Of a stretch of 32,000 bases of DNA, positions 3,453-12,019 are shown piece by piece (within the stretch, counting starts at the first letter, position 1; the number at the start of each line of letters is the position of its first letter). The DNA is from Longivirga aurantiaca (GTDB lineage: Bacteria; Actinomycetota; Actinomycetes; S36-B12; CAIYMF01). Made by a program: the position numbers and the translations under genes. Location of the stretch: contig NZ_JBHSTI010000008.1 in NCBI RefSeq assembly GCF_042660085.1, positions 2,325,604 to 2,357,603 on the forward strand, written 5' to 3'. The notes beneath the pieces were generated by a model. The model was not told where the DNA came from and searched no databases. It saw only the letters and a list, made by a program, of their open reading frames with translations.

Positions 3453-3537
3453 GCGGACGTGGTGGAATTGGCAGACACGCAGGATTTAGGTTCCTGTGCT
3501 CTCGAGCATGCGGGTTCGACCCCCGCCGTCCGCACCA
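3453..3537 (+). tRNA. tRNA-Leu (anticodon UAG), class II with long variable arm, encoded CCA
   Basis: Hand-folded. Acceptor GCGGACG/CGTCCGC, anticodon stem CAGGA/TCCTG with loop TTTAGGT, T arm GCGGG-TTCGACC-CCCGC, discriminator A plus CCA. Confidence 0.9.
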
Positions 3538-6720: not shown

Positions 6721-7134
6721 ATGTCCAGCGATGTCCAGACCAAGCGCCCCGGCGGCGTCACCTTCGTCATCGTGCTCATCTGGGTCGCGGCCCTGTTCAA
6801 CGCCCTCATCGGCGTCTGGATGATGCTGGCGCCGTTCGGCCAGAACCCGACGATCACCGACATCCAGGGCAACACTGTCGAGCTGCCCGGCTTCTGGCTC
6901 TTCATGAACGGCGCGCTCTCGCTGCTGCTGGCGTTCATGTACGTCTGGCTCGCGCGGATGGCCTCGATCGGCGCGGCCTCGGCCCAGGTGATCATCCAGG
7001 CGCTCGCCGTCATCAACATCATCTTCGGCCTGTTCCGCCTGCCCTACGGCTGGCTCGGCCTCGTGCTCAACATCCTGATCCTGGTCATCGCGAGCGGCGC
7101 CTCGGCCAAGGCCTGGTTCAGCCGCCCGATCTGA
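6721..7134 (+). CDS. Small integral membrane protein, unknown function (about 4 TM)
   Basis: 137-aa ORF with GAGGAG 6-7 nt upstream of the ATG and four hydrophobic segments. I recognise no family motif. Confidence 0.7.
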
Positions 7135-8554: not shown

Positions 8555-8971
8555 TCAGACGACGGTGACCGGTTCCTCGGTGACGACGCCGTCCACGATG
8601 CGGTACGACCGCAGCTCGTACGGCCCGTCCTCGCTGCCGGTCTCCCGCGTCGAGACCAGCACGTAGTGGGCCTCCGGCTCGGACGCGTAGCTGATGTCGG
8701 TGCGCGACGGGTAGGCCTCGGTCGCGGTGTGCGAGTGGTAGACGACCACCGGCACCTCGTCGTTGTCGTCCATGTCGCGGTAGAGCCGCAGCAGGTCGAG
8801 CGAGTCGAACTCGTAGAAGGTCGGAGACCGCGCGGCGTTGACCATCGGGATGAACCGCTCGGGGCGGTCGCTGCCGGCCGGGCCGGCGATCACCCCGCAC
8901 GCCTCGTCGGGGTGGTCCTGGCGCGCGTGGGCCACCATCGAGTCGACCAGGTCCTGTCGGATCGTGAGCAC
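8555..8971 (-). CDS. mec: JAMM/MPN+ metalloprotease Mec (CysO-cysteine peptidase)
   Basis: JAMM motif HSHTATEAYPSRTD (HxHx7Sx2D) and upstream Glu (PDEACG). GTG 8971 chosen (TACTCT box 6 nt upstream). The longer ORF extends to ATG 9040, so the start is uncertain. Confidence 0.85.
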   Translation of the reverse strand: MLTIRQDLVDSMVAHARQDHPDEACGVIAGPAGSDRPERFIPMVNAARSPTFYEFDSLDLLRLYRDMDDNDEVPVVVYHSHTATEAYPSRTDISYASEPEAHYVLVSTRETGSEDGPYELRSYRIVDGVVTEEPVTVV

Positions 8972-8977
8972 GCGCCC

Positions 8978-8983
8978 AGAGTA
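8978..8983 (-). promoter_or_regulatory. Candidate -10 box TACTCT, leaderless mec
   Basis: On the minus strand, TACTCT-GGGCGC-GTG(8971). Confidence 0.35.
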
Positions 8984-9164
8984 CGAGGCCTGCGTGCGGG
9001 GCCCGAGGTCGCGTGACGTGCGTCGCATAAACCGCGCCATAGGTTGTTCAACTTGCGCGGTGTGCGTCCCGGGACCACCCTGGGCGAGGCCGCGACCCAG
9101 TGCGCGGCTCCGCCGTTCCGGGAGACGACGGCATTCCTCGGCTCATGCCTGTGGAGGCTTGTCC

Positions 9165-9992
9165 ATGTCGTCCGCCGTAGAGACGCTCTCGAACGGACAG
9201 TTCCAGACCGTCTACAACGTCTTCTCCTTCGCCCTCGCGTCGATGCTCTTCACCGCGCTGTTCCTGCTGGTGTCCCAGGGCCGCGTGCTCCCCCGCTACC
9301 GCCAGGCGCTCGTGGTCTCCGCGACCGTCTGCGGCATCGCGGCCTACCACTACTTCCGCATCATCAACTCGTTCAACGAGGGCTTCGCCCCGACGGCGAT
9401 CGGCGGCGACTACACGCTGACGCCGTTCGGCTTCAACGAGGCCTACCGCTACGTCGACTGGCTCCTCACGGTGCCGCTCCTGCTGCTCGAGACCATCGCG
9501 GTCCTTGCGCTCCCCCGCGCCACCCGCGCGTCCCTGCTCACCAAGCTGATCCCGGCGTCGGTCCTGATGATCGCGCTCGGATACCCGGGCGAGGTCGCCA
9601 TCGACACCCTGCCCAAGATGCTGTGGGGCGCGGCCTCGACGATCCCGTTCCTCTACATCCTCTACGTGCTGTTCGTCGAGCTCACCAAGTCGCTCGGCCG
9701 TCAGCCCGCCGAGGTGGCTGCCAGCGTGAAGCGCCTGCGCATCCTGCTGATCGCCACCTGGGGCGTCTACCCGATCTCCTACCTGTTCCCGGTCTTCGGG
9801 CTCGACGGCGCGGACGCGTTCGTCCTGCGCCAGGTCGGCTACTCGGTGGCCGACGTCCTGGCCAAGTGCCTCTACGGCCTCGTGATCTACAAGATCGCGC
9901 GCATGAAGAGCGCAGCCGACGACCCGGTCTTCGCCGAGCAGGAGTTCGAGGAGGCGCCGTCGTCCGAGGCTCGGGCCACGGCTGCTGCCTGA
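9165..9992 (+). CDS. Microbial (type 1) rhodopsin, xanthorhodopsin/proteorhodopsin-like light-driven proton pump
   Basis: ORF 8838..9992 trimmed to the ATG at 9165 (GGAGG 7 nt upstream). Helix C RYVD98WLLT102VPLLLLE109 (DTE), His62 (AYHYF), WGVYPISY, helix G SVAD230VLAK234CLYGL, helix E LWGAASTIPFLYILYVLF. Confidence 0.9.
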   Translation: MSSAVETLSNGQFQTVYNVFSFALASMLFTALFLLVSQGRVLPRYRQALVVSATVCGIAAYHYFRIINSFNEGFAPTAIGGDYTLTPFGFNEAYRYVDWLLTVPLLLLETIAVLALPRATRASLLTKLIPASVLMIALGYPGEVAIDTLPKMLWGAASTIPFLYILYVLFVELTKSLGRQPAEVAASVKRLRILLIATWGVYPISYLFPVFGLDGADAFVLRQVGYSVADVLAKCLYGLVIYKIARMKSAADDPVFAEQEFEEAPSSEARATAAA

Positions 9993-10045
9993 CCGGCACG
10001 ACGCACCACTCTCCGCACCTGCGTCTCCCGGCACGGGTGCGGTCA

Positions 10046-10083
10046 GGGCGGGTCCGTCGGTCGACAGACCGACGGACCCGCCC
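10046..10083 (+). terminator. Perfect 17-bp stem / 4-nt loop hairpin between rhodopsin and blh
   Basis: GGGCGGGTCCGTCGGTC-GACA-GACCGACGGACCCGCCC, starting 54 nt after the rhodopsin stop and ending 48 nt before the blh start. No U-tract, as is common in high-GC actinobacteria. Confidence 0.55.
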
Positions 10084-10130
10084 ACCCCTCCTTCCACGCC
10101 GCACCGGCCATCCCGCAGCGAGGAGCAGCC

Positions 10131-11126
10131 ATGGCCACGGTCGTGACGACCCGCCCGCGGGAACTGGCCGCACCGCCCCTCGTCGCCGTCGTGCTCGCCG
10201 CCGGACCGGTGGCGGTCGCCCTCGCCGTGGCGTCCTCGGGCGCGTTCGCGAGCTCGGACCCCGCGGTCCCCGGCTGGGCGCCGGTCGTCGCCCTCGCGGC
10301 CCTCGTGGCCGGGGTGCCGCACGGCGCCGTCGACCACCTCGCCCTCGTCCGGTCGCCGTCAGGACGGCGGCGCCTCGAGCTGGCCGCCGTCTAACTCGCC
10401 CTCGCCGCGACGGCTGCGGCTGCCGTCGTCCTCGCCCCGGCGCCGGCGTTCATCGTCGTGCTGGCGATGTCGGTGTGGCACTTCGGCACGGGTGACGTCG
10501 CTCTCGCGGACGAGCTGGCGGGCTCGCCCCGGCGCGGCCGCGGGACGCGACTGGTCCACGTGCTCGCCGCCGGGTCGGTGCCGGTGCTGCTGCCGCTGAC
10601 CTCGCCCGCCGCGACCGCCACCCTGGTGGGGCTGGAGCCCCGGCTCTCGGCCGTCACGGCGCCGGGCCTGCTGCTCGGCGTACGCGTGGCCGTGCTCGTC
10701 CTGGCCGCCACCGCGGTCGCCGTACTGCTGCGGGGGCGCCGAGTCGCCCCGGCAGGCGAGGTAGCGCTGCTCGTGCTGCTGGCTCTCACCGTGACGCCGC
10801 TGCTCGCCTTCGCGGTCTACTTCTCGGCCTGGCACGCCGCCCGGCACACGCTGCGGCTGGCGCTGGACGACCGGTCGCGGATCGACAGGGTGCGCCTGCG
10901 CACCGTCCTCCGCGACGGCCTGCCATCGCTCGTGGGCACGCTGGCGGTGGTCGGGGCCGCGGTCGGCTCCGGGGCGACGACGTCCACCCGGGTCCTGTGG
11001 TTCGCGCTCGCCGCGGTCTGGGGGCTCACCGTGCCGCACATGGTGGTGGTCGGCGCCTTCGACCGGCGACGACGCAGCGCAGGCGTCAGTCCTGCTCGTC
11101 CCAGCCCGGCGGAGGCTCGGACGTGA
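10131..11126 (+). pseudogene. blh: Brp/Blh-family beta-carotene 15,15'-dioxygenase (retinal synthase) frame interrupted by an in-frame TAA at 10392..10394
   Basis: ORFs 10131..10394 and 10458..11126 are in the same frame. The first carries GVPHGAVDH. The second carries WHFGTGD, SAWHAARH (two His 4 apart) and VPHM. GAGGAG lies 5 nt upstream of ATG 10131. A single stop separates the first conserved His from the others. Confidence 0.7.
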
Positions 11127-11679
11127 GGCCCGTGACGGCCTGGACGAGCGTCTCCTGCAGGAACGTCAGCCAGTCGTAGACGTGCACGTGCACGAACCCG
11201 GGGTCGTCCTCGTCGAGGTCGTAGAAGCCCTCGTGGTTGTCCTCGGTGAGCCCGAGCCGTGCGCCGAGGGCGAGGCGCAGGTCGTTGAGCGCACCCATCC
11301 AGGACGCGATCTCGTCGTCCGGCACGACGACCTTGCGGTCGGCCTCGGCCAGAGCACGCAGCACCGTCGCGGCATGGTTCATCTTGGTCTCGCGCAGCGA
11401 CCGCTCGGTGAAGCGTCGGAACTCCGAGCTGGCCTCGTCGTCGTCGGCGTAGGCGTCGGGCAGAAGCCGCGCGAGGGCGGGGTCGTCGGGGCGCTCGGCG
11501 TCGGGGTCGATGCCGACCATCCGGGCGAGCGGGTCGGCGTCGGCGCCCCAGGGGTCGTCCTCGGGCGAGACGAGCTCGAGGACCTGGCTGACGAGCGTGG
11601 CCAGGAGCCCGCGCTCGACGTCGTCGACCTTCAGGACCAGCTTGCCCGTGGCAGTACGCCGGAAGCCGTGCACGGCCAC
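11086..11679 (-). CDS. DUF2017 domain protein (conserved ClpS neighbour in actinobacteria)
   Basis: 197-aa acidic ORF starting at a GTG 1 nt after the clpS stop. Family assignment is from memory of the clpS-adjacent conserved gene and its acidic sequence character. Confidence 0.75.
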   Translation of the reverse strand: MAVHGFRRTATGKLVLKVDDVERGLLATLVSQVLELVSPEDDPWGADADPLARMVGIDPDAERPDDPALARLLPDAYADDDEASSEFRRFTERSLRETKMNHAATVLRALAEADRKVVVPDDEIASWMGALNDLRLALGARLGLTEDNHEGFYDLDEDDPGFVHVHVYDWLTFLQETLVQAVTGLTSEPPPGWDEQD

Positions 11680-11680
11680 G

Positions 11681-12019
11681 TCAGTCGTCCTTCTGCAGGG
11701 TGGCCCAGAGCCCGTAGGAGTGCATCGCCGCGACGTCGATCTCCATCTCCTCGCGGGTGCCGTTCGAGACCACCGCGCGGCCCTCGTGGTGCACGTCCCA
11801 CATGAGCTTCTGCGCCTTCTCCTTGGAGTAGCCGAAGTACTCCATGAACACGTACGTCACGTACGACATGAGGTTGACCGGGTCGTTCCAGACGAGCGTG
11901 ATCCACGGCCGGTCCGGAGCGGTGATGCTCTCGGACTCCGGCCGATCGAGCTCGACCGGTGCGACTCCCACGGCGTCATCGTCGCACGGGCACGCGGCGG
12001 CGGGTGTGCGCGGCACCAC
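11681..12019 (-). CDS. clpS: ATP-dependent Clp protease adaptor ClpS
   Basis: Core [46 protein letters not shown]. Start uncertain: GTG 12019, GTG 12016 or GTG 11971. Confidence 0.85.

Follow-up and report, generated by a model that had tools for sequence, protein, structure and literature searches.

A probably long-resident actinorhodopsin gene and an interrupted blh frame between the DUF2017 and mec genes of Longivirga aurantiaca

Genes and regulatory features of the locus

The window, that is, the whole 32,000-nucleotide stretch of DNA that was analysed, carries in the gap between mec and a DUF2017 gene a rhodopsin gene and a Brp/Blh frame, both antisense to their neighbours. The features of this region are the following.

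8555-8971, minus strand: mec, a JAB/MPN CysO-cysteine peptidase homologue, first gene of mec-cysO-cysM (PF14464, E=1e-28)
8978-8983, minus strand: -10 element (TACTCT) of a putative mec promoter, 6 nt ahead of the GTG, with a probable leaderless start (comparison of relatives)
9031-9057, plus strand: conserved element ACCGCGCCATAGGTTGTTCAACTTGCG ahead of the rhodopsin gene; it overlaps the -35 of the putative promoter (comparison)
9053-9081, plus strand: putative rhodopsin promoter, with -35 TTGCGC at 9053-9058, a 17-nt spacer and -10 CACCCT at 9076-9081
9118-9127, plus strand: conserved 5'UTR motif CCGGGAGACG, the exact reverse complement of 10022-10031 (comparison)
9165-9992, plus strand: rhodopsin gene, actinorhodopsin/xanthorhodopsin-like, DTE type, 275 aa, intact (PF01036, E=1.3e-37)
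10013-10042 and 10046-10083, plus strand: two tandem GC-rich hairpins past the rhodopsin stop, a putative terminator/attenuator (inverted repeat, folding)
10131-11126, plus strand: blh, a Brp/Blh beta-carotene 15,15'-dioxygenase frame of 331 codons, interrupted (PF15461, E=1.6e-36)
10392-10394, plus strand: in-frame TAA at blh codon 88, 'gtc TAA ctc' (comparison with relatives)
11086-11679, minus strand: DUF2017/AosR-like gene (PF09438, E=9e-58)
11681-12019, minus strand: clpS (PF02617, E=2e-22)

Beyond mec, the genes cysO, cysM, murI, an MBL hydrolase gene, rph and rdgB all lie on the minus strand. A reading of this DNA made earlier from the sequence alone (henceforth the sequence-only reading) had likened the block to Rv1331-1341; the conserved order is correct, but the rhomboid that it had included is not one, the 137-aa ORF between cysM and murI not being a rhomboid by Pfam. 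Its other remarks on the layout hold up well: the matches to PF01036, PF15461 and TIGR03753 bear out both gene identities and their positions; both genes are on the plus strand and the flanks entirely on the minus strand; third-position GC looks native (0.92 for rhodopsin and 0.88-0.92 for blh, against 0.87-0.96 for the neighbours); and the right end does run into the next gene, in a convergent overlap of 41 bp (11086-11126) between the 3' end of blh and the last 41 nt of the DUF2017 gene. The slot likewise holds extra cargo relative to other actinomycete orders: a Jiangellales MAG has nothing there, and Streptomyces has an amino-acid permease gene. The longest ORF of mec extends to 9040; its start is placed at GTG 8971, which is backed by the relatives (their alignment begins at residue ~22 of the long ORF, and 138 aa are called) and by the -10 element. 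The same arrangement (TAGGCT or TACCCT, 6-7 nt, start codon) is common to relatives with filled and with empty slots. Against the AosR model NF051854, the DUF2017 gene scores 101 bits, below the cutoff of 260.

The rhodopsin gene has a GGAGG 8 nt 5' of its ATG, and its product matches PF01036 at 129.9 bits (cutoff 24.6), with residues 20-245 on profile positions 7-221 of 224. The best structural match is PDB 9hfk (305 bits, E=5e-90), for which a literature search found no describing paper; residues 5-264 align with residues 5-264 of the solved chain 9hfk_A. The protein is nearer to XR/GR-like proteins than to proteorhodopsin, NaR or ClR, scoring 280 bits against psXR, 276 against GR (6nwd, E=2e-81) and 215 against XR, versus 113 for ClR, 90 for GPR and 88 for NaR. 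The alignment gives D98, T102, L106, E109, G155, D230 and K234 as its key residues. The helix-C D-T-E motif (D98, T102 and E109, in RYVDWLLTVPLLLLE) corresponds column for column to GR D121/T125/E132, and the Schiff-base lysine of helix G (DxxxK) is found with D230 and K234 in SVADVLAK, opposite TIADVLAK of GR; RYVDWLLTVPLL..E and ADVLAK recur unchanged in the D121/T125/E132/K257 region of GR. G155, in MLWGAAS, aligns with GR G178 (IIWGTVS), which is the XR G156 position, where dual-chromophore (antenna-binding) rhodopsins have a small residue that opens the carotenoid fenestration. By sequence, the protein is predicted to be a green-tuned DTE outward proton pump of the actinorhodopsin/xanthorhodopsin type; its putative assignment to the actinorhodopsins draws on Nanopelagicales-like flanks and on a slot common to low-GC contigs. 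With a dN/dS of 0.11 in the comparison of the window with L002 (L numbers denote the related loci compared), the opsin is under strong purifying selection.

A generic promoter and terminator consensus scan made no calls at the locus, and the promoter and hairpins were recognised only through the relatives. The hexamers of the putative rhodopsin promoter and their spacing are kept in L009, L012, L015 and L023, with varying spacer sequence. The upstream element is found with at most two mismatches to GTTGTTCAACTT in 33 of 86 rhodopsin upstream regions, versus 0.4% of shuffles, mostly at -120 to -127, and is present also at rhodopsins of other loci. An AosR/SigH site was considered as its source and is not supported, as the element accompanies the rhodopsin to loci without aosR and mec; the AosR paper gives no binding motif to compare with it. 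The rhodopsin is probably transcribed from its own conserved promoter, with a start predicted near 9088, divergent from a leaderless mec. Downstream, the hairpin region contains a perfect 17-bp inverted repeat (I16), and the rhodopsin-blh spacer folds at -77.4 kcal/mol (z=-5.5), with compensatory changes in two pairs across four relatives and a strong hairpin 3' of the rhodopsin in every relative. The two hairpins probably terminate or attenuate transcription, so that blh downstream would be expressed at a lower level. Rfam at E<=1 gave two sub-threshold chance matches and nothing else. Candidate regulatory motifs around the rhodopsin are GTTGTTCAAC and the complementary pair CCGGGAGACG/CGTCTCCCGG. 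The complementarity of 5' and 3' UTRs was also considered as a general trait of these genes and dropped, being confined to the subclade of the window and individually marginal (p about 0.03-0.08).

The interrupted blh frame

The blh frame, with a ribosome-binding site GAGGAG at 10120-10125, scores 126.8 bits against PF15461 (cutoff 28) and 136.4 bits against TIGR03753 (cutoff 95.25). It contains the candidate iron ligands His64/69 (PHGAVDH), His117 (WHFG) and His235/239 (WHAARH), which among the relatives compared are conserved in L002, L009, L015 and L006, and its product would split beta-carotene into two retinals for the opsin. Here the sequence-only reading was right about the family and overlooked the TAA at codon 88, the counterpart of which is Tyr in L002, L009, L015 and L006. 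The N-terminal fragment before this stop retains only His64 and His69 of the conserved histidines, and blh, as assembled, is a pseudogene that belongs to the family by descent.

The evidence for the TAA comes from one assembly. The stop might reflect an error of sequencing or assembly, or be a minority variant; the cassette would then work and cover the last step in making retinal by itself. Only one base (TAC/TAT to TAA) separates the frame from 331 intact codons: it has no frameshifts, and all five conserved histidines are in place; the blh dN/dS of 0.33 (window versus L002) indicates constraint over most of its history, and the orthologues are intact in L002-L004 (331 aa) and in L009. No second copy came to light when the 87-aa and 222-aa Blh fragments were looked up as exact matches, and the sole contig with an identical rhodopsin is 1.2 kb long and ends before blh. 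We nevertheless regard an error as unlikely, if far from negligible, in that blh has been deleted independently in the nearest relative and is absent from two others, opsin carriers without blh are well documented in the order (10.1101/367102; PMC12817590), and an A-creating substitution error in a 79%-GC sequence would be atypical of assembly artefacts.

In that nearest relative (L023, with a rhodopsin identical at 99% of amino acids and 94% of nucleotides), the counterpart of window positions 10090-11081 is missing, leaving a 76-nt remnant of the blh ribosome-binding site and first 13 codons (66% identity; score 19 versus -3±4.4 for shuffles). L012 and L005 have the rhodopsin alone. The independence of the L023 deletion, together with the lack of blh in these two loci, points to recurrent loss of blh in the group. 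The gene is found beside the rhodopsin only in the high-GC subclade; blh alone is a lineage-restricted addition, now decaying, and its dN/dS is three times that of the rhodopsin (0.33 versus 0.11). The nonsense codon at residue 88 would knock blh out in the window; in the nearest relative the gene is deleted. Since blh is dead or deleted while the opsin remains constrained, the opsin would have to use retinal from elsewhere, rely on another enzyme or serve a retinal-independent role.

The slot among relatives and its history

In a sample of 80 related metagenomic contigs, 54 carry the rhodopsin in the same slot, on the plus strand between mec, cysO or murI on one side and DUF2017-clpS on the other, all of these on the minus strand. 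The 54 contigs range from 36 to 73% GC and their rhodopsins down to 64% identity; blh is present in none. Among named relatives, 'Candidatus Nanopelagicales' MAGs come closest in the flanks, and GC and synteny suggest that the low-GC contigs belong to acI/Nanopelagicaceae. Divergence of the rhodopsin follows that of the flanks: the p-distances of the two have a correlation of r=0.80 over 1376 pairs, or of r=0.88 when the flanks are limited to clpS and DUF2017, and dS between the window and L002 is 0.27 for the rhodopsin, compared with 0.19 for cysM, 0.29 for murI, 0.31 for clpS, 0.34 for cysO and 0.41 for DUF2017. In neighbour-joining trees on tblastn-derived alignments, the rhodopsin of the window clade is sister to the same-slot L027/L028 (94% and 62% bootstrap in two trees), and the flank tree with which it was compared recovers the same grouping, with deeper nodes weakly supported (18-68%). 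An identical cassette at this locus throughout the family, with a congruent phylogeny, was what the sequence-only reading had named as the mark of vertical inheritance, and for the rhodopsin this is essentially what is seen, the two trees agreeing on the main groupings. The reading that it implied, of a two-gene module recently wedged into a core locus, is not supported for the rhodopsin, given the same-slot count, the correlation with the flanks and the flank-like dS. Lateral movement of the rhodopsin, with or without blh, does occur, in a direction that these trees do not establish, because rhodopsins 81-86% identical are found at five or more genomic locations besides this one (L006-8, L024-26, L103, L104, L105) and are mixed with those of the slot where the tree is poorly resolved.

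Comparison of the junction across relatives, which had been suggested as a check, also confirms that the cassette is absent from the close relatives L010, L011, L013 and L014. In their empty slots DUF2017 and mec lie just 18-57 bp apart and the mec -10 element is retained, and no cassette remnants are visible within these 18-57 bp in L010 and L011. In the flank tree, L010 and L011 nest beside the window, L002 and L009 at 100% bootstrap. As the four empty slots are nested among carriers, they are most simply losses, and insertion is a poorer explanation of them than loss, or exchange through homologous recombination. The nearest neighbour of the window is L009/L010 in both flanks and L002 over ~9050-11580; this mosaic, with its heterogeneity of site patterns (chi2=48, p=8e-10), shows that close relatives exchange alleles of the cassette by homologous recombination.

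In a different sequence of events, the cassette would have been lost in the common ancestor of the window clade, L010 and L011, and the lineage of the window, L002 and L009 would have re-acquired it from a related lineage by recombination across the conserved flanks. The mosaic ancestry of ~9050-11580 relative to both flanks would fit such a history, as would the position of empty-slot taxa as the immediate outgroups of the window clade, and a blh dS of 0.71 (window versus L002), two to three times that of its neighbours, could mean an older imported allele. The count of events is equal to that of the loss-only scenario, and on parsimony three losses cannot be told from a single loss and a regain by recombination. 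However, between the window clade and L012/L015 the rhodopsin distances (0.12-0.16) show no reduction against those of the flanks (0.14-0.18), the rhodopsin tree reproduces the flank groupings, and the mosaic signal is one of exchange among carriers rather than of gain into an empty site. We therefore consider loss and regain to be quite improbable.

The junctions had been described as devoid of signs of mobility, and the searches agree. No integrase or transposase family turned up when all plausible ORFs of the 32 kb were scanned against Pfam, and a repeat search found no direct repeats bracketing the cassette; the only tRNA in the window by ARAGORN is a tRNA-Leu at 3453-3537, 5.5 kb away. 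No crtE/B/I/Y genes were found within the 32-kb window. Searches of IMG/VR and INPHARED returned no phage or viral carriage of relatives, and plasmid matches in PLSDB have at most 48% identity, in Polymorphobacter and Frondihabitans. None of the enzymes, repeats, attachment sites or atypical composition of a mobile island or transposon-borne cassette was found at the locus. That this organism or its recent forebears newly acquired a mobile rhodopsin-blh module at the DUF2017-mec junction is very hard to credit, even with a cassette antisense to all its neighbours, empty slots in close relatives and a near-identical architecture (promoter element, rhodopsin, hairpin, blh) in the unrelated contexts of L006, L024 and L103, when set against the breadth of slot occupancy, co-divergence with the flanks, flank-like dS, native GC3 and these negative searches.

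We consider it likely that the lineage's own actinorhodopsin has long been resident in this slot, that blh has decayed here, and that the cassette has been gained and lost by deletion and homologous recombination. In the order of events that we infer, the rhodopsin would have occupied the slot between the aosR-like DUF2017 gene and mec-cysO-cysM since before the Nanopelagicales-like lineages, from low-GC aquatic ones to those of 72% GC, diverged. Presence or absence of the cassette, or of blh alone, would have arisen by deletion and homologous recombination via the conserved flanks, and gain and loss by this route would account for mobility genes not being seen. Given the same location across the lineage and the premature stop in blh, the locus appears to be an old inherited feature in partial decay rather than a fresh insertion.

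Relation to known rhodopsin systems

The rhodopsin shares the whole seven-helix core with the GR/XR group (6NWD, 3DDL; 9HFK, psXR 9WFA, Kin4B8-XR 7YTB) at E=5e-90 to 1e-62, and with GR in particular the motifs of helices C and G and the glycine of the fenestration. It differs from GR and XR in coming from another phylum and in that its carotenoid binding and pumping are predictions, and from the group as a whole in its C-terminal tail (residues 250-275), which is not conserved. The blh frame resembles Brp/Blh proteins in matching both family models over their full length and above their cutoffs, with candidate ligand histidines, and departs from them in its break at codon 88 and in a C-terminal tail that is antisense to the end of DUF2017.

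Marine proteorhodopsin photosystem clusters, PR-crtEIBY-blh, were reportedly described by Sabehi in 2005 and Martinez in 2007. Such clusters are often laterally transferred as islands. As in them, the opsin here is genetically linked to a retinal-forming enzyme; unlike in them, only blh is linked, and the opsin appears to be a long-term resident of one slot.

A parallel in type is ActR of acI/Nanopelagicales and Luna-cluster Actinobacteria (Dwulit-Smith et al. 2018, 10.1101/367102; Chuon et al. 2021, PMC8113403), which has in common with the window rhodopsin the xanthorhodopsin-like clade, an origin in Actinomycetes, the DTE motif, Leu at the green/blue tuning position, a glycine permitting a carotenoid antenna, a single-copy chromosomal gene with (putatively, here) its own promoter and terminator, and patchy blh in the group. 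Nanopelagicales isolates all have one green actinorhodopsin, with blh patchily distributed (PMC12817590; 10.1101/367102). In contrast to these hosts, the present one has a GC content of 72% and is not a streamlined low-GC plankter; and whereas actR of acI is usually distant from blh (10.1101/367102), blh here lies directly 3' of the opsin and is a pseudogene. Opsin carriers without blh include acI-C, Nanopelagicus and Rhodoluna lacicola (10.1101/367102; PMC12817590). The window, L023 and L012 resemble them in having an intact, constrained opsin and a missing or dead retinal synthase, and differ in that loss is in progress, as a nonsense codon, a deletion with a remnant and intact copies elsewhere. 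A retinal-independent scramblase role has been proposed for ActR (PMC12393363).

A decidedly tentative extension, which we think doubtful as a whole, is that strong purifying selection maintains the opsin in this branch, which is high in GC and probably associated with soil, while retinal synthase is repeatedly lost, which would point to scavenged retinal or to a retinal-independent role such as the lipid scrambling suggested for ActR, and that the promoter-proximal element and the complementary 5'/3' UTR motifs form an undescribed regulatory module travelling with the gene. More generally, an antisense light-energy cassette among housekeeping genes resembles a fresh horizontal acquisition, an attractive reading that is corrected here, yet it appears to be a very old resident of its slot across lineages from 36% to 73% GC, giving actinorhodopsin a fixed genomic address in the lineage between the aosR-like DUF2017 gene and mec or murI. 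The cassette appears to be shuffled by homologous recombination through core flanks and not by mobile elements. The conserved upstream element is a candidate regulator site for actinorhodopsin expression, and the three stages at which blh is caught among close relatives (an intact gene, a nonsense mutant and a deletion that leaves a remnant) bear on why many opsin carriers lack retinal synthase.

The opsin gene pair and its setting

Two frames on the + strand lie between mec and the DUF2017 gene, in opposite orientation to all neighbours of this slot, and the profile matches bear out the sequence-only reading of them as a microbial rhodopsin and a frame of the Brp/Blh family. The features of the region are as follows (window coordinates):

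6721-7134, +, 137-aa ORF with roughly four TM segments, between cysM and murI and on the strand opposite to them
9031-9057, 27-nt upstream element ACCGCGCCATAGGTTGTTCAACTTGCG with core GTTGTTCAAC (9043-9052), overlapping the rhodopsin -35
9053-9058, +, putative rhodopsin promoter -35, TTGCGC, conserved in relatives
9076-9081, +, putative rhodopsin promoter -10, CACCCT, conserved in relatives
9165-9992, +, rhodopsin, 275 aa (Bac_rhodopsin PF01036, E=1.3e-37)
10013-10042 and 10046-10083, hairpins after the rhodopsin stop
10131-11126, +, blh frame (PF15461, E=1.6e-36; TIGR03753, 136 bits, cutoff 95)
11086-11679, -, DUF2017 gene, homologue of M. tuberculosis AosR/Rv1332 (101 bits, under the equivalog cutoff)

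On the mec side the block comprises rdgB, rph, an MBL hydrolase, murI, the small membrane ORF, cysM, cysO, and mec, and on the other side DUF2017, clpS, a class-V aminotransferase, and a GH18 protein. The gene order is that given by the sequence-only reading except for a rhomboid: the 137-aa ORF sits at the position of the M. tuberculosis rhomboid but is not one by Pfam and has no Pfam or NCBIfam match. It is 92% identical in three related loci (L002, L009, L010), and of the lower-GC relatives (48-64%) that have kept the ORF, most show 35-48% identity. The pair has the native third-position composition noted previously (GC3 0.88-0.92, within the local range of 0.87-0.96), and the DUF2017 gene does share 41 bp at its 3' end with blh. 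The impression that mobility genes are absent also held, with no integrase or transposase in the 32-kb window, no direct repeats found bracketing the cassette, and the sole tRNA of the 32 kb (tRNA-Leu, 3453-3537) lying 5.5 kb away; the window has no crt gene either.

The closest solved structures to the rhodopsin all belong to the xanthorhodopsin-like clade, namely, 9hfk (305 bits), psXR, Gloeobacter rhodopsin (GR; 6NWD, 276 bits), Kin4B8-XR, and xanthorhodopsin (XR; 3DDL), whereas chloride pumps, sodium pumps, and proteorhodopsin (PR) score far lower (~80-113 bits). Key positions, aligned to GR unless stated, are:

D98, GR D121, proton acceptor
T102, GR T125, helix-C motif
E109, GR E132, proton donor
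D230 and K234, GR DxxxK, Schiff-base motif
L106, PR position 105, green/blue tuning (Leu = green)
G155, GR G178/XR G156, opens the carotenoid-antenna fenestration

By homology, the protein would be a green-absorbing outward proton pump, and it may bind an antenna carotenoid.

Expression signals and the adjoining operon

The rhodopsin ATG is preceded by GGAGG at 8 nt, and the hexamers of its putative promoter stay among relatives while the sequence of the 17-nt spacer between them varies. The upstream element recurs ~120 nt before the rhodopsin start in 33 of 86 upstream regions (shuffles, 0.4%), at loci that span 36-73% GC and include other-locus rhodopsins. A strong hairpin follows the rhodopsin in every relative; the rhodopsin-blh spacer of the window has a folding energy of -77 kcal/mol (z=-5.5), and pairing in its second hairpin is kept via compensatory changes. 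These hairpins would serve as a terminator or attenuator holding blh expression under that of the opsin. In addition, the first 3' hairpin has at its apex CGTCTCCCGG (10022-10031), of which the 5'UTR motif CCGGGAGACG (9118-9127) is an exact reverse complement. The two motifs occur together in eight lineages and are jointly absent in three (L002, L006, L105); their complementarity is of marginal per-locus significance, and no compensatory variants of the pair were seen among the lineages compared.

The -10 of mec (TACTCT, 8978-8983, -) lies 6 nt before its GTG at 8971, and relatives with filled and empty slots alike place TAGGCT or TACCCT at a distance of 6-7 nt ahead of the mec start. Thus, mec has its own promoter regardless of the cassette and is probably leaderless. 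In M. tuberculosis, AosR acts with SigH to activate mec-cysO-cysM under oxidative stress (PMC8280819); with the AosR-like gene on one side and mec-cysO-cysM on the other, the rhodopsin stands between this regulator gene and the operon that it presumably controls.

Inheritance, probable loss, and exchange of the slot

The cassette had been taken for an insertion into a housekeeping block, and comparison with relatives speaks against this. A metagenome scan with the rhodopsin as query returned 80 loci, in 54 of which the rhodopsin adjoins at least one window flanking gene in the orientation seen in the window, usually as mec/cysO(-) rhodopsin(+) DUF2017(-) clpS(-). The GC content of these same-slot loci runs from 36 to 73%, their rhodopsin identities lie between 99% and 64%, and blh is missing from the slot in all 54. 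The lowest-GC contigs (36-44%; L029-L035, L038, L046, L052, L078, L089) have murI(-) rhodopsin(+) DUF2017(-) clpS(-), with mec-cysO-cysM missing from the block; GC, habitat-type contig names, and synteny suggest that they are acI/Nanopelagicaceae. Across the 55 loci of the entire collection that cover rhodopsin, DUF2017, and clpS, rhodopsin distances correlate with flank protein distances (r=0.80; 0.88 with clpS and DUF2017 alone). Rhodopsin and concatenated-flank NJ trees, built on tblastn-derived alignments and with weakly supported deep flank nodes, give matching groups; in both, the window clade comprises (window+L023, L002, L009), then L015 and L012, with the same-slot L027/L028 as sister. 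The dS of the rhodopsin between window and L002 (0.27) falls within that of the flanking genes (0.19-0.41). Together, these comparisons yield the result that the sequence-only reading had said would refute an insertion. They indicate that the rhodopsin has resided in the slot since ancient times and was passed down vertically, in agreement with published surveys, which find one green actinorhodopsin in every cultured Nanopelagicales isolate (PMC12817590).

In a scan of species-representative genomes, the nearest relatives by DUF2017 protein are MAGs (80-81% identity, all ~72% GC) labelled 'Candidatus Nanopelagicales bacterium' or uncultured Actinomycetes. The mec/DUF2017 junction takes three states among relatives:

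Rhodopsin + blh: window, L002-L004, L009, L015
Rhodopsin only: L012, L005
Empty: L010, L011, L013, L014, and the Jiangellales MAG L022

In empty slots just 18-57 bp separate the DUF2017 stop from the mec start. The flank tree places L010 and L011 directly outside window/L002/L009 (100% bootstrap) and L013/L014 inside the high-GC clade, with the rhodopsin present in all more distant ingroup lineages. The simplest reading is that the empty slots are losses; one loss followed by regain of the cassette through recombination would take as many events as three losses, and we regard it as unlikely. On flank genes, the empty-slot L022 groups with L048 and L058 (68-70% GC, same-slot rhodopsin; 99% bootstrap), and from this grouping slot occupancy may reach beyond the Nanopelagicales-labelled lineages. 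In Streptomyces (L016, 6752-8260, +), the slot holds an amino-acid permease (PF00324); it seems to tolerate differing cargo between orders.

A four-way nucleotide alignment reveals a mosaic. The window is nearest L009 or L010 on both flanks and nearest L002 over ~9050-11580, a segment that takes in both cassette genes and the 3' half of DUF2017, and site patterns differ among left flank, cassette, and right flank (chi2=48, p=8e-10). This ancestry points to exchange of the cassette allele among close relatives by homologous recombination via the conserved flanks, which could likewise spread filled, blh-less, or empty alleles. Rhodopsins 81-86% identical to that of the window are present in five or more unrelated contexts (L006-L008, L024-L026, L103, L104, L105), with no recombinase genes nearby; occasional relocation or transfer of the gene does take place. 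In L103, where the rhodopsin of the other-locus rhodopsin+BCD pair shares 82% identity with that of the window, a heliorhodopsin (PF18761; 680-1483, -) lies 4.5 kb from the pair.

Probable decay of blh

The family assignment of blh stands, but the sequence-only reading overlooked that its frame is broken by an in-frame TAA at codon 88 (10392-10394, gtc TAA ctc). Orthologues in L002, L009, L015, and L006 have Tyr here (AYLA, AYVG, LYLG, GYLT), implying one TAC/TAT-to-TAA change. The frame is otherwise intact and retains His64/69, His117, and His235/239; its dN/dS against L002 (0.33) is relaxed relative to that of the rhodopsin (0.11), yet still constrained, and the lesion is therefore recent. 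The TAA is read in one assembly only and may be a sequencing error. The dS of blh (0.71; window 10131-11126 versus L002 10954-11949) is two to three times that of all neighbouring genes; codon constraint may be weak, or the allele may be older and imported.

In the collected data, rhodopsin and blh are neighbours in the high-GC rhodopsin clade (window clade, L015, L006-L008, L024/L026, L103; 77% bootstrap) and, at other contexts, in a distant clade (L076, L077, L083, L101); in acI, a long distance usually separates actR from blh (10.1101/367102). High-GC pairs show star-like Blh protein distances (~0.5), which would be consistent with linkage from the base of that clade onward. L023, whose rhodopsin is 99% identical, lacks the equivalent of window 10090-11081 and retains a 76-nt remnant that aligns to the ribosome-binding site and initial 13 codons of blh (66% identity; score 19 versus -3±4.4 for shuffles). 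Taking the TAA as a genuine nonsense mutation, blh is undergoing loss inside the high-GC clade, being absent from L012/L005, deleted in L023, and nonsense-mutated in the window. An uneven distribution of blh is already documented for the order, in that acI-C and Nanopelagicus have no copy, and Rhodoluna lacicola depends on supplied retinal (10.1101/367102; PMC12817590). For ActR, a scramblase activity that does not require retinal has been put forward in a recent preprint (PMC12393363). The rhodopsin and blh pair is genuine, correctly identified, and ordinary: a resident actinorhodopsin at its ancestral address, accompanied in the window by a blh that is lineage-specific and now defunct.
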